This document shows positions 359 through 12,705 of a DNA stretch of 64,000 nt, piece after piece. Source of the DNA: an uncultured Acidobacteriota bacterium (GTDB taxonomy: Bacteria; Acidobacteriota; Vicinamibacteria; Vicinamibacterales; CAVVIG01); assembly GCA_963814975.1 (NCBI GenBank), contig CAWFFB010000020.1:29202-93201 (forward strand), in the 5' to 3' direction. Under the pieces are notes generated by a model that searched no databases, was not told where the DNA came from, and saw only the letters and a list, made by a program, of their open reading frames with translations. The first letter of the stretch is position 1. Every line of letters begins with the position of its first letter. Both the position numbers and the translations under genes were made by a program.

Positions 359-2071
359 TCAGGGCACCGGCGAACGGTGGCCAGGAATCTGGCTCCGGGG
401 CGTCGTCACGAGCGCCGCGCGCAAGACGTGACCCTCGGCACGCGGCATGGCTATGCCCGACAACGCCGCGAGGGTCGGCGCGATGTCGGCAGGCGTCGCC
501 GCGTCGCGATATTCCCCCGGCTTCACCTGTGGTCCCATCAAAACAATCGGCACTTGCTGGTCGTACGGGTTAGCCGTACCGTGCGACGTGCCGAGGGCCG
601 CGAAGGTCCATCCAGGCTCCATTGCCAGCACCAGGTCCCCGCTCCGCTGCGGCACGTAGCTGAGCGCGGCGGCGCGAAGCAGCACATCGCGCGAGGCAGC
701 CGCGTCGCGAAGTTGATCGCGCGGGAAGACGCGGGCGACACCGGGCTGGCCATTGAGCAGCTTGATCAGGGACTTGAGAGCGGCCGGCTGCTTCTGCAGC
801 CGTTCGTACATTCCTGGCTCGAAATACACTTCGTTGGGTGCGCCGACGCGCATGACGTATTTGCCGGGTCCCGCGGCTTTCTGGGCGGCAGCTTCGACCA
901 AGTCCCGGAGCTTCGCCGAGCTCACTCGTCCCCCGTGCTGCCCCGAGCGGCGTCCCTGTTCCGGGATGATCCCCACGCCGTGGTCCGACGTCAGAGCCAC
1001 GATGTATTGGTTCCGCCCGACCAGGACATCCAGTCGATCGAGCAAGATGCCGATCGTTTCGTCCAGACGGGCATAGATGTCCTGCACTTCCCGGCTGCGC
1101 GGCCCAAAGGCGTGCCCGACGATGTCTGGGCTCGAGAATCCGACCCCGAGCACATCGGGGGCGGCGTGCCTGCCCAGTTGCAGCGATTCAACCAGCGCGG
1201 CTGCAAACCGGCCGAGATACGCGTCCGCGAACGGGCTCTGCCCCCATTGGTCGAGGAAGGCCTTGTCCGGGCTGCTGCCGGCGCCTTTCAAGACATGCGG
1301 GAACGAGGCCGTCCATCCTGCTGGCGGCTCCTCACTCTCGCCTGCGTCAGCGTCCAGGTACCGGGAAGCCGGGAGCAGAGGTATCCAGGTCTTCCCGTAA
1401 TCGAACGCGATCGGCACGGCATTCACGAACTGTTGCACGGCGCCAACCGGCGCCGAACTGAACGCGGACGAGGTCTGCCATCCATCGAGCGATGGGGTCA
1501 GCCACGTCACGGCGTCACCCGCGCGGCCGGCGAGCATGATGGCGCTCCTGGGCTTGAGTGAAAGCGTCACCACCCGTGAGCCCCGCTGCGTTCGCATCTC
1601 GTCGGCGAAGGTCGGCAGGAGCAGCCCATGACTGCTGTCACCGCCTTGGGGCCGGACACCATAGCCAATCGCCTCGACAGTCGAATCCTCAGTACACGTG
1701 ACCTGGCGCCCCGCTTCGCGATCGTACCAGGCGTTCTGGACGATGCCGTGGGTGCGCGGGAATGCGCCGGTCGATACGGTCGCATGGCCCGCGCACGTCA
1801 CCGTACTGAGGTATGGGTACGCGGCGCGCGAGAACCACGCGCCTTGGTCCAACAGTCGCTTGAGGCCTCGCGTCCAGTCGCTCCGGAAACGAGCAACATA
1901 GTCCGCGCGCATCTGATCGACGATCAGAAACACCACGAGTCTGGGTGGCTGCGACGGGGCACTGCCCGCCTGGCCGGCGCCGCCGCCGCGCTGCCCCGTT
2001 CCGCGGGCGTGGGAAACGCCCAGCGCCAGCATCGCAGCGATCGACATGGCCCTTGCCGTTGCGATTCTCAC
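359..2071 (-). CDS. Alkaline phosphatase family protein (PafA / nucleotide pyrophosphatase type), exported
   Basis: Motifs IVDQMR, TVTCAGHAT (Thr nucleophile), SSPDIVGH, TSDHG and SHG. Signal-like N-terminus. Start moved to GTG 2071, which has GGAG upstream. Confidence 0.9.
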   Translation of the reverse strand: MRIATARAMSIAAMLALGVSHARGTGQRGGGAGQAGSAPSQPPRLVVFLIVDQMRADYVARFRSDWTRGLKRLLDQGAWFSRAAYPYLSTVTCAGHATVSTGAFPRTHGIVQNAWYDREAGRQVTCTEDSTVEAIGYGVRPQGGDSSHGLLLPTFADEMRTQRGSRVVTLSLKPRSAIMLAGRAGDAVTWLTPSLDGWQTSSAFSSAPVGAVQQFVNAVPIAFDYGKTWIPLLPASRYLDADAGESEEPPAGWTASFPHVLKGAGSSPDKAFLDQWGQSPFADAYLGRFAAALVESLQLGRHAAPDVLGVGFSSPDIVGHAFGPRSREVQDIYARLDETIGILLDRLDVLVGRNQYIVALTSDHGVGIIPEQGRRSGQHGGRVSSAKLRDLVEAAAQKAAGPGKYVMRVGAPNEVYFEPGMYERLQKQPAALKSLIKLLNGQPGVARVFPRDQLRDAAASRDVLLRAAALSYVPQRSGDLVLAMEPGWTFAALGTSHGTANPYDQQVPIVLMGPQVKPGEYRDAATPADIAPTLAALSGIAMPRAEGHVLRAALVTTPRSQIPGHRSPVP

Positions 2072-2117
2072 GGTGTTGCTCTCCAGTGCAGATGTGAGGG
2101 AGTTGCGGTTTCGTATT

Positions 2118-3473
2118 TCATAGGAGCACGAGCGGATCGAAGCCGAGCTCGACGGAGTCGATTGCCCTCGCGACTGAGCTGGGCCGTCCTTCTTCGGACT
2201 GGTTTTCCCACAGGTTGACGTCGTACGGCACGGCGAGCCGCTCACCCATCCGATCGACGATGACGCGGACCTGCGGGCGGTGCGGATCGGGCGCATAGAT
2301 CTTCACCACCACCGCCAGTTCGCCCGTATCGAGCCGTACCGCGTTTCCCGCGGGGTAGATGCCCACCAACTGGACGAACCTGCGGACCAGGTGTCGATCG
2401 AACTGCAGTCCATCATTCCGCTTCAAGACTTCGAGGACCCGATCGCTCGGGAAGGACTGCTGGTAGCTTCGCTGCGATCGCATGGCGTCGTAGACATCGG
2501 CAATGCTGCAGAGCATCGTGCCGACGTTGAGCGTCGGCCGCTTCGCGGCGGTGGGGTAGCCGGTGCCGTCAATCCGCAGGTGGTGCTCGAAGGCCACGAC
2601 CGGCACCAGCGCCGGAATGTCTGGTGTGGCGCGGAGAATCTCCGCCCCGTCCACGGTGTGACGCTTCATGATGCTGAACTCGGCGTCCGTCAGTTTATCC
2701 GGCTTGTTGAGAACTTCGAGCGGCGTGCGTACCTTCCCGATGTCGTGCATGAGCGCGGCGAGCCCGAACTCGCGCAGCAGCGATCCGTCGATCGCGAGTG
2801 CCCGGGCCTGTCCCATGGTCAGAATCGACACGTTCACCATGTGTGTGAACGTGTAGTTGTCGTAGTTCTTCAGCGTGGTCAGCGCGAGCAGGGCCGTCCG
2901 ATTCTGGGATACCGCCTGGGCGAGACCGTCAACCATCGTGCGCGCAACGGTCGCATCAGGCTGCCCTTCGGTCCGCGCGCTGTCCCACACCGATTCGGCC
3001 GCCGACACCGCTTCGGTGTACAGCCGCTTGAACGCCGCCATGTCGACCGAGCCCTCGACTTTCTGCTGGACGGTCACGCGGCCGACGCGGATATGCGGCA
3101 GCGCGGGGAACGCCGGGAACTCGCCGTCGGGCCGCAGCTCGAGGGTTGTCACCGCTTCCACGAACTTCGCGATCTCCTCCTCCGTCACGCCCCGGTCGAT
3201 CGTGACGCGTTCGACGCCGAGCAGCTTCAGTCGACGGCTGATCGCGCCGAGGTTCTCCGCTTTGGAGATCGGCGTGTCGTCGACGATGATTTCGTCGCCG
3301 ACAATGCCGATCACGATGGCGGGCTCGAGCGCGTGGAGCGGTTGCACCGCGGCGGCCAGCGCGGCCATGTTCCGCACGATGATCGGATGGCCCTTCGAGT
3401 ACAGCTGGGCCGATCGCACGCTCGCGGCAAGGCGGCGGAGCAGTTCGTCGGCGAGATCCGTGCGCGGCGTCAT
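2118..3473 (-). CDS. HD-GYP domain protein (putative c-di-GMP phosphodiesterase)
   Basis: Motifs YTFTH, LMHDIGK, HHLRIDGTGYP (variant of HHExxDGxGYP) and IADVYDAM, plus a typical GIYPxG...LDTGELAVV C-terminal domain. Confidence 0.92.
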   Translation of the reverse strand: MTPRTDLADELLRRLAASVRSAQLYSKGHPIIVRNMAALAAAVQPLHALEPAIVIGIVGDEIIVDDTPISKAENLGAISRRLKLLGVERVTIDRGVTEEEIAKFVEAVTTLELRPDGEFPAFPALPHIRVGRVTVQQKVEGSVDMAAFKRLYTEAVSAAESVWDSARTEGQPDATVARTMVDGLAQAVSQNRTALLALTTLKNYDNYTFTHMVNVSILTMGQARALAIDGSLLREFGLAALMHDIGKVRTPLEVLNKPDKLTDAEFSIMKRHTVDGAEILRATPDIPALVPVVAFEHHLRIDGTGYPTAAKRPTLNVGTMLCSIADVYDAMRSQRSYQQSFPSDRVLEVLKRNDGLQFDRHLVRRFVQLVGIYPAGNAVRLDTGELAVVVKIYAPDPHRPQVRVIVDRMGERLAVPYDVNLWENQSEEGRPSSVARAIDSVELGFDPLVLL

Positions 3474-3483
3474 CCTCGCCCCT

Positions 3484-5719
3484 TCATCTCGGTGGCCGCT
3501 TCGCGCCGCTCAGCCGTGCACGGGCCACGCGGCGGACGCCGCGCGAGCCGGTGCGCGCCGCCTCTTCGAGGATCGCGTCCGCCTCGGGCGTGCCCATCCG
3601 GGCCAGTGCCGCCGCCGCCGCCGTGCGCAGGAGCCGTGTCCGCCCCGGCGCCCACCATTCGCCGCGGTGCAGCGCCGTCATCAGTTCAGGCACTCCGATC
3701 GGATCCTTCAGAGCGGCGAGCGCTTCGATCGCGCGCAGGTACACGGACCTGAGCTGTCCCCGGTGATCGACGTTGCGCAGAATGTACGCGAAGAGCGGAG
3801 CGGCGCGCTCGTCGCGTACGGCGCCGAGCGACTGCATGATCGCCTCGCGGAAGGTCGCTGTTCCGTTGACCAGCGCCTGTTGCAGGACCTGGAACGCCTG
3901 GTCGGTGCCGATGTTGAGAATCGCCCGCACCGCTTCGCGCTGCACCTGTTGCTCATCGTCGGCGAGCAGTTCCGTGAGCTCCGGCAGCGCGTCGCTGCCG
4001 CCGAAATTGCGCAGCAGATACACCGCGGTGCGACGCACCGCCGGATTCGGCGAGGTCTTCAGGCGTTCGACCTCCCCCCGGCCGATCGAACCGAATGTAA
4101 TCAGAATGGCGGTCAGACGCTCGCGCGGGCGCGTGCGGTCCTCGGCTAACAGTGCTTCGGCGAGCGGCCGGATCACCGCCTCGCCAACCGACACGCACAT
4201 CGTCTTGACCAGCTCGAACTGGGCGTCGTCGATGTGCGCGAGATGGGCGACGATGTGCTGCATCATCGAGCCGCCGACCAGCTCGTTGATGGCCTTCGCG
4301 GCCGTCTGGCTGCGCTCCTTCGAAGCGGTGTTGCGCGCCTGCTGGACGAGCACGTCGAGCAGTTCGTCCGCCGCCTGGAAGTCGCCGACGAGCAGAAGAT
4401 CCTCGATCAGCGTCACCACCGGCCGCATCAAGGCGGCCCAGCGGTCGGGATTCTCCTCGATGCGCAGCAAGTCGAACACCAGGCTCAGATCGAGTTTGCG
4501 CAGCTCGCTCGTCGACACCGTCCCCAGCCATGCCGCCACCCGCTCCGGGGGATCATCGCTGACATTCTCGACCTCGATCGCCTTCGTGCGTGCGCTCGAC
4601 AGCTCCCGGGCGTAGTCGTCCGGCACGTACGGCTTGTCCGAATAGCTGGAGAGGATCTTCTGCGCGACCTCGTCCCAGGCGCCCTCGAACCCTGACATCT
4701 TGCCGATCGACTCGGATGCCTCATCGTGGGCCATGGTCAGCAGACGCTCGCGATGATCGGCGTCCTGCACCAGGTTGTGAAATGCCTGGGAGACGCGGTC
4801 GATTGAGGTGCCTTCTGCGAGCGCATTGCGCGCGACGAAGCCGGCGATCGCGCCGTCCGACATGTGGCTGACGACGGTGTCCACCGTCGCCGGCGCCCCG
4901 GCGCTGGCGCCCCCGCGATGCGACAGCAGCGACACCATCATCTCGGGCGAGAGCCGCCCGATCGCCGCCGCCATGTTCTGCATCGCCGGTTCGAGCTGAT
5001 CGGGAGCCCTCGTCGAAACGGTTTCGATGATGCCTTGCAGCAGCCGGACGAGCGCCGCGGCCCGCTGCCCGACTCCCCGGCCTCCCCGCGTCGCGCTCGC
5101 GTCGACCGCGAGGATCAGCTCACCCAGCTTGTCGGAGTCGCCCGCGGCCTCGAGCAGGGCGCGCGCGGCGTCTTCGTCGAGGTCGAATGCGTCGTCCTGC
5201 AGGCAACTGGCAATGATCTGATCAAGGCCGGCTGCCGCACCGTCACGGCGCTCGCGCAGCACTTCCGCGTAGTCAATCTCGCGAAGCTCGACGTGCCGCC
5301 CGGCCATCGCCGTCCAGAGCCGCCCGATTCCGCCCTCGGCGCGGAGCATCCTCCGGCGACCGCCCAACCAGGAGCAGGAACTTGCGCCACGCTTCGACAT
5401 CTCCACCCGGATTCACGCTCAGCTCGCCGATCAGGTGATCGTGCAGTAACACCGCGAGCTCGGTGATCGCCGCATCCGGACGCAGCGGCGCCCGGCCGTC
5501 GAGCAGCAGCGCGTCCGCGAGCACGCTGATGCGCAATGGTCCTGGGAGGCTGGCTTCGGACGTGACCTGGACGATCCGGCCGAGGGTGGTGGCGATCGCC
5601 GGATGGCCGCCTGGATACAGCATCACCGCCCGGGCAGCTGCCTTGCAGGCGCGCGCGAAGTCGGTCAGGCGGGCCGTGTCCTCAGGTGCGAGCGGGCCAG
5701 GTACGTCGACGGCCATCAC
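3484..5719 (-). CDS. HEAT-repeat protein (frameshift near 5350)
   Basis: ORFs 5273-5719 and 3484-5406 join at ...GRSPED/RAEGGIGRLW. The C-terminal half has HEAT-like helical repeats (AVRRTAVYLL, QVQREAVRAI, RAIEALAAL). Confidence 0.85.
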
Positions 5720-6123: not shown

Positions 6124-6834
6124 CTATCCCGTGGAGAGCCCCGCGCGGCGACCCTGCGCATAGACGGACAGTTCCGCATTGGCGATCGTGATGACCTCGA
6201 GCGCATCAGCGATGTCAGGCACGTCCGCCCCTGGGATAGCGACGTAGAGGTCCTCTTCGCTGAGGCCGGTGTACACACGATTGCCGATACAGCCGAGACT
6301 CGTGACCGTGCCGTGCGCCAGCGCCGCGGGTAGCGCCATACAGGTCGGACGACCAAGCGGAGGCAACGCGCCCGGTTTGCCCGCCCGAATCGCCGCTTCG
6401 TGAAGACGCATGGCCGACGCCGGACGGCACGCGAACAGGATGACGCTCGGGGGCATCGGAGTGTCGGCCAGGGCAGAATAGAGCACCGCGGCCGGAGTCT
6501 GTGAAAGGCGCGGGATCCCGGCCACCTCTTCGGGCCGAATATAGTTCACGCGAAACATGAATTCGAGCGTCTGCGTCGTTTCGGTCGCCCGCTCCGGAGA
6601 CAGGTCGATGCTGTGCGTATAACTGCCGACCGCGCAGTTGAAGTGATCGGACGGTACCGTATAGAAGGTGCGGCCTTCGGCAGCCAGGCGCCAGAAACTG
6701 CAGCCTGACGGTTGGCTTCCCGTGAACCTCGCGACGCCTTCCGGCGCCGAGTCCAGAAATGTAACCGCCACCGGACGGCGGGTGAAGGGCGCGCACGCGC
6801 CGATGCGGTTTTCGAGACGACGCCAATCAGTCAT
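6124..6834 (-). CDS. DUF169 family protein
   Basis: Cys motifs GCSFW, HFNCAVG, PTC and SLGCIGNR are typical of DUF169. ATG 6834 has a GGAGG RBS. Confidence 0.8.
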   Translation of the reverse strand: MTDWRRLENRIGACAPFTRRPVAVTFLDSAPEGVARFTGSQPSGCSFWRLAAEGRTFYTVPSDHFNCAVGSYTHSIDLSPERATETTQTLEFMFRVNYIRPEEVAGIPRLSQTPAAVLYSALADTPMPPSVILFACRPASAMRLHEAAIRAGKPGALPPLGRPTCMALPAALAHGTVTSLGCIGNRVYTGLSEEDLYVAIPGADVPDIADALEVITIANAELSVYAQGRRAGLSTG

Positions 6835-6921
6835 GTTCCTCCATGCCAAGTCTGACCCACAATCACCGGATTGCCTACCGCCGGCAAGCTGGGCGGCACC
6901 GTTCCGTTATACTCGCGCCGG

Positions 6922-8226
6922 ATGCGCGCGGTCGACATCATCCTCAAGAAACGAGACGGCGGCCGACTGGCAGCGGAAGAAATTTCGTTCTTCGTCGACG
7001 GGGTGACGACCGGCACGGTGCCGGATTATCAGGCCTCGGCGCTGCTGATGGCAATTCTGCTGCGCGGAATGACGGACGACGAGACGGCGTCGCTCACGGC
7101 CGCGATGGTTGATTCCGGCGTCCGCCTCGATCTGAGCGGCATTTCCGGCGCGAAGGTGGACAAGCACAGCACGGGAGGGGTCGGCGATAAGACCTCGCTG
7201 GTGGTGGCGCCGATCGCCGCCGCGTGCGGCGTGATTGTGCCGATGATGTCGGGCCGCGGACTCGGATACACGGGCGGTACGCTCGACAAGCTCGAATCGA
7301 TTCCCGGCTTTCGCGTGAATCTGTCGTTCGATGAGATGAACGCCGCGCTGGCCAGCACCGGCTGCGCGATGATTGGCCAGTCGGCCGAGCTGGCGCCGGC
7401 CGACAAGAAGCTGTACGCGCTTCGCGACGTGTCGGGCACGATTGAGAGCATTCCGCTCATTACGGCGTCGATCCTGAGCAAGAAGGTGGCCGAAGGAATC
7501 GAGGGTCTGGTTCTCGATGTGAAGACCGGTCGCGGCGCGTTCATGAAGACGGAAGCCGACGCGCATGCCCTCGCCAAGTCGCTCGTGTCGATTGGCAAGG
7601 CGTCCGGCGTTCGAACGGAAGCGGTCATCACCTCCATGGACGCGCCGCTCGGTTGCGCCGTGGGCAATGCGCTCGAAGTGATCGAGAGTCTGGAAGTGCT
7701 GAAGGGACGTGGCTCCGGGGAGCTCATGGACCTCTCGATCGAGCTCGCCGCGCGCATGCTGCTCCTCGGAGGGGTCGCCGCGGACCGTCCCGATGCCGAG
7801 CGCCGCGTCCGCCACGCCATCGCGTCCGGCAGCGCACTGGCCCGCTTTCAGTCGATTGTCGAATCGCAGGGCGGCGACCCGCGCGTTGTCGAGGACTATG
7901 GAAGGTTGCCCACGGCGTCGGGGCAGCATCCTGTGCCGGCAGATCGATCCGGCTACGTCACGGGGCTCGATGCGGAACTGATAGGCCGCGCTTCGGTGGC
8001 GCTCGGGGCCGGCCGCGATCGAGTCGAAGATGTCGTGGACCCGGCCGTTGGAATCATGGTGGTCGCCCGCATCGGCCACCGTGTGTCCGGCGGCGATCCT
8101 GTGCTGATGCTTCATTACCGGTCGGAGGTCAGGCTCGACGCGGCCCTCGCGCTGGCCCGAAGCGCCATTCGCGTGGCCGACCGGCCGCCGCCCGCCCGGC
8201 CGTCTATACTGGCGAGCATCGACTGA
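6922..8226 (+). CDS. pdp: Pyrimidine-nucleoside (thymidine) phosphorylase
   Basis: MRAVDIILKKRDG start; motifs DKHSTGGVGDK, SGRGLGYTGGTLDKLESIPG and LDVKTGRGAFMK. Confidence 0.95.
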   Translation: MRAVDIILKKRDGGRLAAEEISFFVDGVTTGTVPDYQASALLMAILLRGMTDDETASLTAAMVDSGVRLDLSGISGAKVDKHSTGGVGDKTSLVVAPIAAACGVIVPMMSGRGLGYTGGTLDKLESIPGFRVNLSFDEMNAALASTGCAMIGQSAELAPADKKLYALRDVSGTIESIPLITASILSKKVAEGIEGLVLDVKTGRGAFMKTEADAHALAKSLVSIGKASGVRTEAVITSMDAPLGCAVGNALEVIESLEVLKGRGSGELMDLSIELAARMLLLGGVAADRPDAERRVRHAIASGSALARFQSIVESQGGDPRVVEDYGRLPTASGQHPVPADRSGYVTGLDAELIGRASVALGAGRDRVEDVVDPAVGIMVVARIGHRVSGGDPVLMLHYRSEVRLDAALALARSAIRVADRPPPARPSILASID

Positions 8227-8286
8227 GGCCGTGAGCCGCATGCCAGTCGCGGCGTCGATCAACGCTGCACCGCCGCGGGGCTGTGA

Positions 8287-9105
8287 ATGGACTATTACGA
8301 TCGGGTGCAGGAGGCGGCCGCGGCGATCCGCTCGAACTCCGGACAGGTGCCCTCGGTCGCGGTCGTCCTCGGATCCGGGCTCGGTGACTTTGCCGCCACG
8401 CTTGCCGAGCCGGTGTCGCTGTCGTACCGGCAACTGCCGCACTGGCCGGCGGTTCGCGTCGCCGGTCACGCGGGGCGACTGGTGGTTGGCACCCTTCAGG
8501 GCCGAACGGTCGCCGCCCTCGCCGGACGCAGCCACGCCTATGAGGGGCACGACCTCGGCACCGTCACGTTCGCCGTGCGCGTGCTCGGGTGCCTGGGCGT
8601 GAAGATTCTCATCCTCACCAATGCCGCTGGCGGCATCAATACCGCGTTTGCACAGGGGACGTTGATGGTGATCGACGACCACATCAATTTAACGGGTCTC
8701 AACCCGCTTGTCGGACCCAACGAGGATCGGTTCGGTCCCCGCTTTCCCGACATGACCGGCGTCTATGCCTCGCGGCTACGCGCGGTTGCCGACCAGGTGG
8801 GCGCCGCCCTGGAAATGCAGCTGTCGCACGGCGTCTATGCTGCGCTGACGGGGCCCAGCTACGAAACACCCGCCGAGATCCGGTACCTGCGAGCGATCGG
8901 AGCGGACGCGGTGGGAATGTCCACCGTGCCGGAGGCCATCGTCGCGCGCCACATGGGTCTCGAGGTGCTCGGCATCTCGTGCATCACCAACATGGCCGCC
9001 GGCCTACGGCCCGGCCCTCTGAGTCATGAAGAGGTGCTGGAAACCACGCGCCGGGTGCGCGGCCGGTTCATCGCGCTGCTGGAGGGAATCATTGGACGAC
9101 TCTGA
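8287..9105 (+). CDS. punA: Purine-nucleoside phosphorylase (trimeric type)
   Basis: Motifs VLGSGLG, GRSHAYEG, LTNAAGGIN, GPSYETPAE, GMSTVPE and ITNMAAG. Confidence 0.95.
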   Translation: MDYYDRVQEAAAAIRSNSGQVPSVAVVLGSGLGDFAATLAEPVSLSYRQLPHWPAVRVAGHAGRLVVGTLQGRTVAALAGRSHAYEGHDLGTVTFAVRVLGCLGVKILILTNAAGGINTAFAQGTLMVIDDHINLTGLNPLVGPNEDRFGPRFPDMTGVYASRLRAVADQVGAALEMQLSHGVYAALTGPSYETPAEIRYLRAIGADAVGMSTVPEAIVARHMGLEVLGISCITNMAAGLRPGPLSHEEVLETTRRVRGRFIALLEGIIGRL

Positions 9106-9934
9106 TCGCAGACGGCTGTCGGTCTCGACAGTCGATGTCGCCGAGGGTCGTGAAGCGGAATTCCACAATCTCTCGAATGCCTTCCAGGCGCTCTTCGGGC
9201 GCAAGGGCTACGGGCGTTTCGAGACATTTCGCGACGAGGGGGTGCCGACCCGCTATTACTCCGTCCGCGAATGGTCCGGTACCGCTGCGGCCGAGACTTG
9301 CCACGGCGATATCGAAGTGCAGGGGCTCACGTCGAAGCTGTACAGGATCGCGCGTGTGACTCACGTCGTGAACGGCGTGCGCCGCCCGGATCCGTTGCGG
9401 CTCGTGCTGGATGATCACCGGGCTGGCGTGGAATCCGATCGCCGTTCCGGCTTCGATCGGCGGGACGCGACCCGGAAGGAGCCAGTAGTCGAGCGCAGGC
9501 ACAATCGCGAGCGTCGGCTGGGTCCACGGCGGCTGCGGGCCCAGGCGGCCGCCGTCGATCTCGTGGCAGCCGCCCGCCGGGCGCGCGAACATGCCGACGC
9601 CGCGTTTTCGCGGTTCAAGGTCGGTGCCGCGCTCGAGGCGGGCGACGGCACGGTTATTACGGGCTGCAATATCGAGAATGCAACCTACGGCTTGACGATG
9701 TGTGCAGAGCGCGTGGCGATCTTCAAGGCGCTCTCTGAGGGGCACCGCGTCTTCAGCCGCATCGCCATCGTCGTCGACAGCGAACGACCCACACCACCGT
9801 GCGGGGCCTGCCGGCAGGTGCTGTGGGAGTTCGGCGGCAACCTCGAAGTGCAGCTGGCAAACCTGTCACAGGAGCAAGGCACCCATCAGCTCAAGGACCT
9901 GCTGCCGCTGCCTTTCGACGCGCGACTCCTGTGA
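9092..9934 (+). CDS. cdd: Cytidine deaminase with N-terminal ABM-like domain and DRR/ERR-repeat linker
   Basis: C-terminal FKVGAAL, GCNIENATYGLTMCAERVA and PCGACRQ. About 155 extra N-terminal residues are in frame. Probable TTG start at 9092 with GGAGG upstream. Confidence 0.88.
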   Translation: MDDSDRRRLSVSTVDVAEGREAEFHNLSNAFQALFGRKGYGRFETFRDEGVPTRYYSVREWSGTAAAETCHGDIEVQGLTSKLYRIARVTHVVNGVRRPDPLRLVLDDHRAGVESDRRSGFDRRDATRKEPVVERRHNRERRLGPRRLRAQAAAVDLVAAARRAREHADAAFSRFKVGAALEAGDGTVITGCNIENATYGLTMCAERVAIFKALSEGHRVFSRIAIVVDSERPTPPCGACRQVLWEFGGNLEVQLANLSQEQGTHQLKDLLPLPFDARLL

Positions 9935-9964
9935 TCCACGCAGTAGAGTTAGAATTTCTCATCC

Positions 9965-11026
9965 ATGCTGCCCACAATCGCCCGCGAAGACGACGCCGTC
10001 GTGATGATCGACCAGCGCAAGCTGCCGGCGAAGGAAGTGTTCGTGCGCTGCAAGACCGCCGCCGAGGTCGCGCGCGCCATCAAGACGATGGTGATCCGCG
10101 GCGCTCCGGCGATTGGCGTTGCCGCGGCGATGGGCATCGCGCTGGGAACCAGAAGAAGCAAGGCCACCGGCACCCAGAAGCTCGCGGCCGAGTTCTTCGA
10201 GATCTGCGAGCTCATGGCATCGACCCGTCCGACGGCTGTCAACCTGTTCTGGGCGATCGATCGTATGAAGCGGTCGTTTGCCGCGGCCGTCGAAGCGGGC
10301 GAATCGGTCGAACAGATCAAGGACCGTCTGGATCGCGAAGCGAATGCGATACACGACGAGGACGTCGCCAGTTGCCGGGCGATGGGCGCGTTCGGCGCCG
10401 CCGTGGTACCTCACGGTGCGCGCATCCTGACGCATTGCAATGCCGGAGCACTGGCGACTGCCGGCTACGGTACCGCGCTTGGCGTGGTCCGAGCCGCCGT
10501 CGAAGCTGGCAAGCAGATAACGGTCGTCGCCGACGAGACCAGGCCCTTTCTGCAAGGCGCGCGGCTCACCGCATGGGAGCTGGTTCGTGACGGCATCGAC
10601 ACCACCGTCATCACCGACAACATGGCGGGCGCGCTGATGAGCAGGGGCCAGCTTGATATCGTGGTGGTCGGAGCCGACCGGATCGCCGCAAACGGCGACA
10701 CCGCGAACAAGATCGGCACCTATACCGTCGCCGTCCTGGCCCGCGAGCACAACATCCCGTTCTACGTCGCCGCCCCGCTGTCGACCATCGATCTGAATAC
10801 CGTGGATGGCCGGGAGATCCCGATCGAGGAGCGCAATCCACGCGAGGTCAGCCATCTCGGCGGCAGTCAGCTGACGCCGAACGGTGCCCACATTCGCAAT
10901 CCTGCATTCGACGTGACACCGCACCACCTCATTGCCGGCATCATCACCGAGCGCGGCATCTGCCGTGCGCCCTACACCGAGTCGCTGAAGCAGGCCTGCG
11001 AAACCGAAGTGGCGCGCCTTACGTAA
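9965..11026 (+). CDS. mtnA: S-methyl-5-thioribose-1-phosphate isomerase
   Basis: Motifs [49 protein letters not shown] and NPAFDVTP. Confidence 0.96.
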
Positions 11027-11034
11027 GAGCTTTC

Positions 11035-11107
11035 ACCAGAAGACACGAAGCGTACGACACACTGAGGTCCTTGAACAGGTTGGCACCAAGCGCGTGTTCT
11101 TCGTGGT
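11035..11107. repeat. Intergenic imperfect palindrome, CACGAAG family
   Basis: ACCAGAAGACACG (11035-11047) versus CGTGTTCTTCGTGGT (11093-11107). Confidence 0.7.
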
Positions 11108-11124
11108 CTTGTGACTTGTTTGTC

Positions 11125-12192
11125 ATGCTGATCTTGGGCATCGAAACATCGTGCGATGAAACCGCGGCCGCCGTGGTCGAGGAGACCGGAGACGCCGCCC
11201 GGCCGTGGGCTATCCGGTCGAATGTCGTCGCATCGCAGGTGCCCATTCATCGCGAGTGGGGCGGCGTCGTCCCGGAACTCGCCTCGCGCCAGCATGTCCG
11301 AGACATCTGTGGCGTCGCCGCCCGCGCGCTCCAGGACGCCGGGACCACCTGGTCGGACCTCGGTGCCGTCGCCGTCACGCAAGGTCCGGGCCTCGTCGGC
11401 TCGCTGCTTGTCGGCGTGTCGTTTGCGAAGGCCGCGGCGGCTGCCACCGGCCTGCCGCTCGTCGCGGTCCATCATCTGGCCGGCCACGTCGAATCGCTGG
11501 TCCTCCAGAATGGTGAGTTGCCGTACCCCTCGGTGGTGCTGGTCGTGTCTGGCGGTCACACCAGCCTGTATCTCGTCGATGAACCTGGTCGCTATCAACT
11601 CCTCAGCCGCACACGCGACGATGCGGCGGGGGAGGCCTACGACAAGGTGGCGAAGTTGCTCGGCCTTGGGTATCCCGGTGGCCCGGTCATCGATCGCCTC
11701 GCCCGGACGGGGAACGACCGTGCGATCCGGTTGCCGACGACTCGATTGACCCATCCAGACCGGAATGCGCCGACGCTGAAAGGGGATCTCGATTTCAGCT
11801 TCAGCGGCCTGAAGACCGCGGTCCTGCGGCACGTGCGCACTCAGCAGCAGCTGCGGGGGGCTGCGGTGCCGCTGTTCACAGAGCACGAGATCGCTGACAT
11901 CTGCGCCAGTTTCCAGCGCGTGGTCATCGCGGCGCTCGTCGAGCGCACCTTTGATGCGGCGCGCCGACATCACGCGAAGAGCATCGGCGTCGCCGGCGGA
12001 GTGTCCGCAAACAGCCGTCTCCGGGAAGAGTTCGCGGCGCGCGGCAAGGCGCGTGAGATGCCGACGTTCGTGCCGAGCTTGCAGCTGTCTACCGATAATG
12101 CAGCGATGATTGCGGCCGCGGGGCTGCGCAAGCTGCGCGCCGGCGTGACGGCGCCGTTCGATCTCAACGCGGATGCAGGGCTGGTGCTCTAA
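11125..12192 (+). CDS. tsaD: tRNA N6-adenosine threonylcarbamoyltransferase subunit TsaD
   Basis: Motifs LGIETSCDET, GGVVPELASRQH, GPGLVGSL, HHLAGH, VSGGHT, DDAAGEAYDK, FSFSGLKT and TDNAAMI. Confidence 0.97.
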   Translation: MLILGIETSCDETAAAVVEETGDAARPWAIRSNVVASQVPIHREWGGVVPELASRQHVRDICGVAARALQDAGTTWSDLGAVAVTQGPGLVGSLLVGVSFAKAAAAATGLPLVAVHHLAGHVESLVLQNGELPYPSVVLVVSGGHTSLYLVDEPGRYQLLSRTRDDAAGEAYDKVAKLLGLGYPGGPVIDRLARTGNDRAIRLPTTRLTHPDRNAPTLKGDLDFSFSGLKTAVLRHVRTQQQLRGAAVPLFTEHEIADICASFQRVVIAALVERTFDAARRHHAKSIGVAGGVSANSRLREEFAARGKAREMPTFVPSLQLSTDNAAMIAAAGLRKLRAGVTAPFDLNADAGLVL

Positions 12193-12301
12193 GGCGCGAA
12201 AGGTGCTTAAGGTGCTAGGGGTGCGTATGGTGCTAAGGTGCTTGGGGTGTTTGGGTGCTTGGGGTGCTGGGGTGCTTGAGGTGCTCGGGCGCTTAGGTGC
12301 C
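12193..12301 (+). repeat. Array of 13 degenerate 8-9 bp units (GGTGCTnn(n)), left arm of an inverted pair
   Basis: GG(T/C)G cores start at 12193, 12202, 12211, 12220, 12229, 12237, 12246, 12254, 12263, 12271, 12280, 12288 and 12296. Confidence 0.9.
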
Positions 12302-12335
12302 AAAGTGCGGGCGTTATGTGCTTCGGTGAGTCGGT

Positions 12336-12705
12336 TTAGTTATCTGGGCTATTCCTGAGATATCGAATCAGGTGCGTAACCGCGGCGATTGCTCGATTAT
12401 AGAGAGGTTCTAGATCCCGAACCGTGTCTTGACTCCAGTATCTGCGAACTGCGCCATCCCGCAGGTGGTCGCGGAGCTCGAGCAGAGAGCCGCGAGCAAC
12501 ACTGGCGTACTGGGCGAACTCACGATGCCGATAGCGAACCAAATCCTTCGGCGATATTCCGAGTGACTGAGCTCGCATCGCGAACCTGATCGCGAAATCT
12601 GCGATCATGAATCGCAGGTCCTTGGGCGGTGATTGCATGCACCCTCTGGCGCAACTCGTCGCTAAGCTGCCAGACAATGAGATCTTCGACGCGGCGAGCT
12701 CCCAT
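12336..12705 (-). CDS. Four-helix-bundle protein (TIGR02436 / 23S rRNA IVS-protein family), one extra base near 12538
   Basis: MGARRVEDLIVWQLSDEL...FRDQVRDASSVTRNIAEGFG joins RYRHREFAQYASVARGSLLEL...LIRYL after removing one T (GGT T CGC). The EDLxVWQ, NIAEGxGR and ARGSLxE motifs are typical of the family. Confidence 0.88.

Follow-up and report, generated by a model that had tools for sequence, protein, structure and literature searches.

Tetrameric cytidine deaminases (T-CDAs), such as those of Bacillus subtilis (Cdd, 1JTK) and Bacillus anthracis (2D30), are textbook single-domain enzymes of ∼130 to 150 amino acids, and we know of no regulatory appendage in those of bacteria. Here, we describe a cdd gene that departs from this plan. 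It lies in a 64,000-nucleotide stretch of contig CAWFFB010000020.1 (referred to here as the window) from an uncultured acidobacterium of the Vicinamibacterales, abundant and mostly uncultured soil bacteria, and it adds a 155-residue N-terminal appendage to the deaminase. The first part of the appendage agrees in fold and in its size of ∼95 amino acids with the ABM or dimeric alpha+beta-barrel proteins (PF03992; LsrG, 2GFF/3QMQ; SnoaB, 3KG0; DR_2100, 3E8O; PA0709). The second part is a disordered segment rich in Arg-Arg (RR) pairs, for which we take the mixed-charge or arginine-rich-motif (ARM) regions to be a suitable comparison, i.e., the RD/RE region of U1-70K, the ARMs of lambda N and HIV Rev, and the Arg-rich insertions of actinobacterial Rho. 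A further candidate for comparison is the arginine-rich region of the Cle proteins, defined by a tandem [Y/F]xGP[D/E][R/K]R motif (PMC5677366). The corresponding cyclic di-GMP (c-di-GMP)-binding motif of CSP/CleD is DRR-x11-[R/K]RxxD with two stacking tyrosines, and residues D154, R155, and R156 of the CleD peptide contact the guanine bases of c-di-GMP (PMC7382256). We find that the fusion is real, widespread in the Vicinamibacterales, and undescribed in the searchable literature, and we lean towards reading it as a normal salvage enzyme whose appendage is under selection and serves to regulate or tether it.

The plus-strand frame is open from an ATG at 9026 to the stop codon at 9932-9934 and contains, in order, LDDSDRRRLSVSTVDVAEGREAEF..., ...ESDRRSGFDRRDATRKEPVVERRHNRERRLGPRR..., and then a full Cdd. 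The start codon in use is the TTG at 9092, so that the gene overlaps the end of punA by 14 nucleotides, with the punA TGA (9103-9105) inside the first codons of cdd. Both this TTG and the layout around it, ..GGAG(G/A)..TC(A/G)TTG...TCTGA, are found in 20 of the 20 full-length relatives from species genomes. This shared arrangement of Shine-Dalgarno sequence, TTG, and punA stop marks the TTG as the conserved start and indicates that it is translationally coupled to punA. For a second view of the frame, we aligned 21 orthologous genes from 21 species by codons and counted the differences per site at codon positions 1/2/3, which amount to 0.25/0.22/0.45 in the ABM part, 0.31/0.24/0.53 in the Arg-rich linker, and 0.11/0.07/0.37 in the Cdd part. 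The excess at third positions in all three shows that every part evolves as coding sequence in this frame. An open reading frame (ORF) on the minus strand (9089-9745) was rejected as a real gene, given that it has no family match and that the codon-position signal favors the plus frame.

These data bear on the possibility that the fusion is an artefact, either of a sequencing or assembly error that joined two genes or of an untranslated chance ORF upstream of cdd in GC-rich DNA. At a G+C content of 64.5%, long ORFs often arise spuriously, and one relative (L085) carries a frameshift, but the frame is uninterrupted in independent assemblies from many studies, the coding signal extends through every part, and the start context is conserved. 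We therefore rejected a read error or two joined genes, and we regard an artefact of any kind as extremely improbable. The comparative data and the codon-position signal bear out the initial annotation in that one frame encodes an ABM-like part, an Arg-rich segment, and a complete Cdd; the outcome that it named as a refutation, relatives with the parts as separate genes, did not occur, since they keep the single frame. The same annotation saw no obvious internal start, which is correct for the family rather than for the window. A GTG at V158 (9563-9565) could serve as one in the window, but there is a start codon at this place in only 3 of 21 species, and no alignment column near the domain boundary has one in more than 5 of 21. 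With no conserved internal start, Cdd is not generally producible alone, and we rejected a free Cdd made from V158. A riboswitch or other RNA element in a 450-nucleotide stretch of this region was likewise rejected, as an Rfam scan of positions 6500 to 12500 gave no match at E ≤ 1, and so was an origin of the RR motifs from a tandem repeat at the DNA level, as there is none between 9000 and 10000. Sequence comparison thus confirms the predicted product as a single protein of 280 residues and a genuine fusion of three parts, i.e., an ABM-like domain, an Arg-rich segment, and a complete Cdd.

The deaminase domain aligns end to end with the T-CDAs of B. subtilis and B. anthracis, and the solved tetrameric structures 2d30, 3dmo, and 1jtk match it over its whole length with E values of 4e-32 to 1e-28. 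It scores 124.3 bits against TIGR01354 (cyt_deam_tetra; cut-off, 113.65; profile positions 3 to 124 of 126) and 132.4 bits against NF004064 (cut-off, 74). It has in common with T-CDAs the catalytic Glu, the CN(I/V)ENA motif, a C-terminal LLP..F tail, and a zinc site of the tetrameric Cys-Cys-Cys type (CAE ... PCGxC), not the H/C/C site of dimeric enzymes. The nucleoside (ribose)-binding motifs FKVGAAL and GCNIENATYG are present and conserved. By all of these motifs, catalytic and ribose binding, the core is predicted to be a complete and competent cytidine/deoxycytidine deaminase of the homotetramer class. Four genes with a PF00383 domain were found in the genome, the other three being TadA, a TadA/dCMP-deaminase-like protein, and a 382-amino-acid open frame taken, from its length, to be RibD, so that the fused protein appears to be the only Cdd of this genome.

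Given an Arg-rich, ARM-like disordered stretch next to a deaminase, one could imagine a polynucleotide editor, in which the stretch delivers RNA or single-stranded DNA and the enzyme acts on cytosines in nucleic acids rather than on free nucleosides. A compositional match of the stretch to the Arg-rich DNA-binding N terminus of TT-virus ORF1, although weak, would fit this idea. However, the core is 65 to 86% identical to the plain Cdd of sister lineages at the equivalent operon slot, it retains the free-nucleoside motifs CNIENATYG, CAER, and PCGACRQ, its score exceeds the equivalog cut-off for nucleoside CDA, and it is the only Cdd of its genome, all of which makes an editor very unlikely.

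The initial annotation had taken the N-terminal part for an ABM-like barrel, and structure prediction agrees. The AlphaFold2 model (pLDDT, 91; pTM, 0.81) is a strand-helix-strand-strand-helix-strand (beta-alpha-beta-beta-alpha-beta) fold, and a Foldseek search of the PDB with it gave 53 matches at E ≤ 1e-3. ABM-type proteins or related dimeric ferredoxin-like (alpha+beta barrel) proteins, e.g., NIPSNAP, account for every one of the top 50. The leading matches (DR_2100, LsrG, PA0709, SnoaB, RslO4, and a putative ABM protein, NE) have TM scores of 0.72 to 0.82. A profile search of the PDB with the N-domain family also put only ABM-type proteins at the top (SnoaB, PA3566, LsrG, and HmoB), and the aromatic W-x9-10-H stretch typical of the ABM family is present. 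Pfam ABM is matched by 20 of 23 aligned relatives (best E value, 7.5e-7), and L086, a relative composed of ABM and Cdd only, scores 25.8 bits against it. From the model and these matches, residues ∼8 to 96 are confidently predicted to adopt the ABM fold. The domain is only 7 to 20% identical to solved ABM proteins, and its fusion to a deaminase sets it apart from the known ones. Its family is very small, the N-terminal 155 residues having only 74 relatives among 1.84 billion representative proteins. Most of these are the same fusion, as fragments or at full length, and a few are stand-alone proteins of ∼100 amino acids with 26 to 35% identity. The nearest stand-alone relative (P0169; 98 amino acids; L090 4001-4297, also in L091 to L093) directly follows rnpA-yidD-yidC-jag(R3H), a conserved cluster for RNA and membrane-protein biogenesis, while a second one (P0185) lies on a short, uninformative contig. 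As neither adjoins cdd, the context of stand-alone ABM genes was rejected as a Rosetta-stone clue.

To see which residues are kept, we used an alignment of 36 family members with identities down to 45% (alignment A1). In the ABM domain, only four residues are invariant (S10, D48, Y56, and W61), and conserved polar residues are many (these four plus C70, H71, and D73). One explanation for the latter would be a bifunctional enzyme, in which the ABM domain, in the manner of SnoaB or LsrG, works without a cofactor as an oxygenase or isomerase on a metabolite of the operon's pathway, with the RR segment as a mere tether. The nearest folds do include enzymes (LsrG, SnoaB, and RslO4), the ABM+Cdd form without an RR segment (L086) exists, and the mtnA pathway has diketo-pentyl-phosphate intermediates chemically akin to the LsrG substrate. 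Yet the polar residues are not retained in the distant form L086 or in the stand-alone relatives, the nearest of which has the unrelated rnpA-yidC-jag context, no catalytic signature is common to the whole ABM superfamily, and a passive tether would leave the invariance of the RR pairs unexplained. We therefore consider a second enzyme activity unlikely.

The segment between the two domains is predicted to be disordered (pLDDT below 50 for residues 95 to 153) and has a mixed-charge composition, with a net charge of +7 and with Arg at 15 of 55 positions. Its RR pairs are at positions 117-118, 123-124, 135-136, 141-142, and 146-147, in the motifs DRR(S/T)GFDRR and (D/E)RRLGPRR, and the consensus of the clade is ..RLLLDDRRARvEaDRRtGFDRR-x10-(G)ERR-x3-(D/E)RRLGPRRLRD. 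No Pfam family covers the segment, the TT-virus ORF1 N terminus being the one match and a compositional one. Arg-rich nucleic-acid-binding disordered regions of the U1-70K type share with it the alternation of acidic residues and Arg-Arg, disorder, a net positive charge, and, when the relatives of the window protein are included, a variable repeat number, although this likeness is compositional only, without homology, and the window segment differs in having invariant RR positions. In alignment A1, Arg 117, 118, 123, 124, 141, 142, 146, and 147 are invariant, and D116, G120, R135, R136, and G144 reach at least 90% conservation, so that outside the deaminase no residues are better conserved than the RR pairs. 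Across the 21 species, Arg at the invariant positions is encoded by two to five different codons, which shows that the constraint acts on the protein. Since the RR pairs stay invariant down to 45% identity, compared with four invariant residues in the whole ABM domain, this conservation identifies the RR segment as functional rather than a passive linker or spacer; it is more than the linker of the initial annotation. Together with the third-position excess, the varied codons at invariant Arg positions show, at the level of sequence evolution, purifying selection on both add-ons.

To gain an idea of how common the fusion is, we ran a word-indexed protein search with the fused protein, which gave more than 3,800 hits, and inspected the best 120. 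These are proteins of 268 to 285 amino acids with 68 to 99% identity at 95 to 100% coverage, mostly from soil metagenomes, and the named ones are labelled only "cytidine deaminase," an annotation that hides the extra 155 residues. The search for the same architecture in other genomes that the initial annotation had suggested was productive: the single-frame fusion is kept in more than 100 protein clusters, and the full-length gene is present in 20 species genomes, which are metagenome-assembled genomes (MAGs) of Vicinamibacterales (Acidobacteria subdivision 6). With a profile of the N domain, 40 of 301 sampled Vicinamibacterales genomes, from 15 of 120 genera, were found to contain it, never in more than one copy and, with few exceptions, in an open frame of ∼280 to 300 amino acids.

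At the slot between punA and mtnA, the gene occurs in four architectures. Plain Cdd (41 loci) begins with LSDSD-LIAAARRAR and has an unchanged start context. RR+Cdd (12 loci) has 3 to 8 (D/E)RR units, often as DRRSGx hexapeptides, bracketed by W-P-x-x-ERR and DRR-x-E-x-x-W-x-P-V. ABM+Cdd is represented by L086, which has a 12-residue linker and no RR units, and by its neighbor L085 (genome G022), in which a frameshift inside the deaminase (∼3400 to 3700) puts the rest of the domain into another frame, the result of either an assembly error or a pseudogene. ABM+RR+Cdd was found at 23 loci, including the window. In the latter, ABM and RR lie between the LSDSD and LIAAARRAR pieces of the plain relatives, which shows that the appendage is an insertion immediately after the start codon. 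The occurrence of four architectures at one slot further shows that the ABM and RR modules can be separated, and it implies that catalysis does not depend on them. Plain, RR-only, ABM-only, and ABM+RR genes thus form a natural deletion series at one operon position, in which the function of each add-on is directly testable. Two other Vicinamibacterales cdd genes (L041 and L068) have a different short N-terminal extension, with RDPGSGIRDPK-like repeats instead of RR units. Acidobacterial-type punA-cdd contigs also occur in MAGs labelled Bifidobacterium breve (L047), Gemmataceae (L044), and Methylomirabilota (L029), labels that probably reflect binning contamination.

For the deaminase core, we built a maximum-likelihood tree (124 columns) and placed the architectures on it. 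Many forks of this tree are unresolved, so that the number of gains is not fixed, but the architectures are strongly clustered, with 12 changes against a mean of 37.8 after shuffling and none of 200 shuffles as low. The RR-only genes form a clade with 100/96 support, and the ABM+RR genes of family f1 cluster together. Nested among the latter are two plain genes (L024 and L028), suggesting secondary loss of the appendage. Such losses, the absence of the appendage from most relatives, the variable repeat number, and the patchy distribution over 15 of 120 genera would all fit neutral accretion, i.e., a captured ABM gene and low-complexity sequence that are merely tolerated. Against it stand the purifying selection on both add-ons, the retention of the appendage across families at 45 to 50% identity, and the lack of a conserved internal start that would bypass the appendage in any member, and we judge neutral accretion to be improbable, slightly more so than a second enzyme activity.

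The initial annotation had further proposed a link to c-di-GMP. The Cle arginine-rich region/CSP of Caulobacter CleD is likewise a short, disordered, Arg-rich segment on a folded domain, and the window segment resembles it in its (D/E)RR triads, in G-(P/F)-(D)-R-R units, and in successive RR pairs ∼11 to 12 residues apart. It differs in lacking the defining motifs and a stacking Tyr pair, in its position N terminal to an enzyme rather than C terminal to a receiver domain, and in its origin from Acidobacteriota rather than Alphaproteobacteria. When we scanned 189 family members with an RR-bearing extension, the tandem [Y/F]xGP[D/E][R/K]R motif was found in none of them, and a single exact unit was found in 2 (P0161, YAGPERR; P0180, FSGPERR) but not in the window; L088 carries a single unit, FNGPDRR. 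The motif DRR-x11-[R/K]RxxD is present in 7 of the 189, excluding the window, which has DRR-x10-RRxxRE instead. PilZ (PF07238) gave no match at E ≤ 1 with either the whole protein or residues 1 to 155, and the RRxxxR string of the window protein (RRDATR) is not followed by a PilZ barrel domain. Judged by these motifs, the RR segment does not belong to the Cle family, and the sequence comparison does not support a specific link to c-di-GMP.

Nor does the genomic context support it. The initial annotation had pointed to an HD-GYP gene about 6 kb away. This gene (2118-3470) is on the minus strand, in an operon of its own with a HEAT-repeat gene, and a DUF169 gene lies between it and the salvage operon. 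The HEAT gene adjoins 20 of 23 ABM+RR loci, 21 of 41 plain loci, and 7 of 12 RR-only loci. As the same neighbor is thus found with plain, RR-only, and ABM+RR genes alike, the neighborhood is not tied to architecture, and the proximity of HD-GYP is uninformative. Beside the HD-GYP operon, a further nucleotide-handling gene (359-2293, minus strand) encodes a 644-amino-acid protein of the type I phosphodiesterase/nucleotide pyrophosphatase family.

A broader version of the idea casts the RR segment as a linear receptor that recognizes c-di-GMP or some other guanine nucleotide, e.g., (p)ppGpp, folds on binding like the Cle region, and switches the deaminase, coupling pyrimidine salvage to second messengers. 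In the CleD peptide, guanine is read by precisely such (D/E)RR triads (PMC7382256), the segment is disordered like apo-CSP1, GFDRR and GPRRLRD are loosely like GPDRR and GPRRRKAD, and the sister clade has the single exact units mentioned above (L088, P0180, and P0161). DRRSGx repeats also occur on a PilZ protein (P0265) and a receiver-domain protein (P0262). On the other hand, the tandem and strict motifs are absent or rare as described, the clade of the window has no aromatic pair for base stacking, no PilZ or other c-di-GMP-binding family is matched, the HD-GYP gene is in another operon on the other strand in a neighborhood common to plain-Cdd loci, the matches to PilZ, receiver (REC), and histidine kinase (HK) proteins have E values above 1, and the wide variation in repeat number among RR-only relatives would be unusual for a defined pocket. 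We find this receptor doubtful, if somewhat less so than a second activity of the ABM domain. The same low rating applies to its most far-reaching form, in which the RR segment would be a new linear, fold-on-binding receptor for c-di-GMP, (p)ppGpp, or G-rich RNA that gates or localizes the sole Cdd, with the scattered DRRSGx repeats belonging to the same class. If it were true, second messengers or RNA turnover would have a new route to control nucleoside salvage.

To assess whether RR-type repeats extend beyond this gene, we scanned its own genome in six frames, which revealed dense (D/E)RR clusters in no real gene but cdd. The remaining dense hits are ERRTPNA short-repeat arrays read in frame, and we rejected the idea that the RR module is a tag that moves around this genome. 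The arrays that read ERRTPNAERRTPNA in frame (e.g., C21, at amino acid ∼20880, and C22, at ∼89504) are short arrays of 8- to 9-bp repeats, one of which is at the head of a 348-amino-acid ORF with a coding-like GC3 (G+C at third codon positions). On the minus strand of C14 (at amino acid ∼192049 of frame 0), an open frame of 182 amino acids has a hydrophobic N terminus followed by ERRDRYEDRWDRREDRRDRQEDRAERREDRWDRREDRYD, i.e., an RD/W-rich repeat protein. A region-restricted protein search with the RR segment of the window returned only its own family and no other domain partners, and a search with a repeat-rich RR-only relative gave almost exclusively Cdd proteins of ∼200 amino acids. Since the non-Cdd matches of the latter (PilZ, REC, HK, and DnaJ) are all nonsignificant (E ≥ 0.016), other domain partners of the RR segment were rejected. 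Runs of DRRSGx or ERRSGx do appear as heads or tails on unrelated proteins, namely, the PilZ-like P0265, the receiver P0262, a histidine kinase (P0274), and a DnaJ/CbpA protein (P0250), as well as in P0242, P0259, and P0269, a family with repeated YANDGWxGWGDWLG modules, and they may be an undescribed class of short linear repeat. Nothing relevant on DRRSG repeats or on ABM-Cdd fusions was found in the searchable literature.

We return to the reading of the protein as an ordinary salvage deaminase with a selected accessory module. Its C-terminal domain would convert cytidine and deoxycytidine into uridine and deoxyuridine and feed DeoA, and the N-terminal appendage would not be required for catalysis. 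Pairing is usual for ABM domains and is probable here; it would clamp, cross-link, or stabilize the Cdd tetramer, and the domain may bind a small ligand, akin to ACT-like regulatory domains. The Arg-pair segment probably folds on an anionic partner, and binding would regulate or localize the enzyme. Our ranking of what the appendage does is a guess. It starts with RNA or another polyanion as the partner of the segment, in view of the disorder, the mixed charge, and the varying number of repeats. Next comes a guanine nucleotide, for which the (D/E)RR chemistry speaks, as does the layout, which is fixed in the clade of the window. A second, enzymatic activity of the ABM domain takes third place. 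Four observations weigh against this reading or parts of it. The window protein scores only 16.8 to 19.2 bits against Pfam ABM, under the gathering cut-off of 23.1 bits; the conserved polar residues of the ABM domain could equally mean a second catalytic activity; the apparent secondary losses show that the appendage is dispensable in some lineages; and the number of (D/E)RR units, which ranges from 3 to more than 10 in relatives, fits weak constraint, though also multivalent binding to a polyanion. If the RR segment does bind a nucleotide signal or RNA, it would be a new short linear receptor motif and would link signalling or RNA turnover to the salvage of pyrimidines. Should the segment do nothing measurable, the protein would exemplify how selection can maintain low-complexity Arg-rich sequence, along with a small barrel domain, on a housekeeping enzyme.

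The coordinates of the protein parts and of the neighboring genes are listed in Table 1. By their family matches, deoA, punA, cdd, and mtnA make up a nucleoside-salvage operon, with deoA as its first gene. In most related loci, deoA is also found upstream, and the mtnA-family gene directly follows cdd whatever the architecture. Neither mtnP nor mtnK was seen in the operon next to the mtnA-family isomerase, whose substrate may be supplied by the PunA-type phosphorylase.

Table 1. Features of the fused cdd gene and of its operon in the window.
Feature	Positions	Strand	Basis
deoA, pyrimidine-nucleoside/thymidine phosphorylase	6871-8226	+	NF004490, 560.8 bits; TIGR02644, 547 bits
punA, purine nucleoside phosphorylase	8287-9105	+	NF006054, 367 bits; Pfam PNP_UDP_1, 1.2e-53
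GGAGG (9081-9085), 6-nt spacer, TTG start (9092-9094)	9081-9094	+	Sequence reading; kept in 20/20 full-length relatives
Fused cdd	9092-9934	+	One gene, 280 residues
ABM-fold domain (predicted), residues 8-96	9113-9379	+	AlphaFold2, Foldseek, and PDB profile search
Disordered Arg-pair segment (predicted), residues 97-155	9380-9556	+	pLDDT, conservation, and composition
Homotetramer-type Zn cytidine deaminase domain, residues 156-280, plus stop	9557-9934	+	TIGR01354, NF004064
C204-A205-E206, first Zn ligand and catalytic Glu	9701-9709	+	Invariant in A1; aligns with CAER of solved CDAs
P236-C237-G238-A239-C240, second and third Zn ligands	9797-9811	+	Invariant in A1; aligns with PCGACRQ of solved CDAs
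mtnA-family sugar-phosphate isomerase	9965-11026	+	TIGR00512, 440 bits

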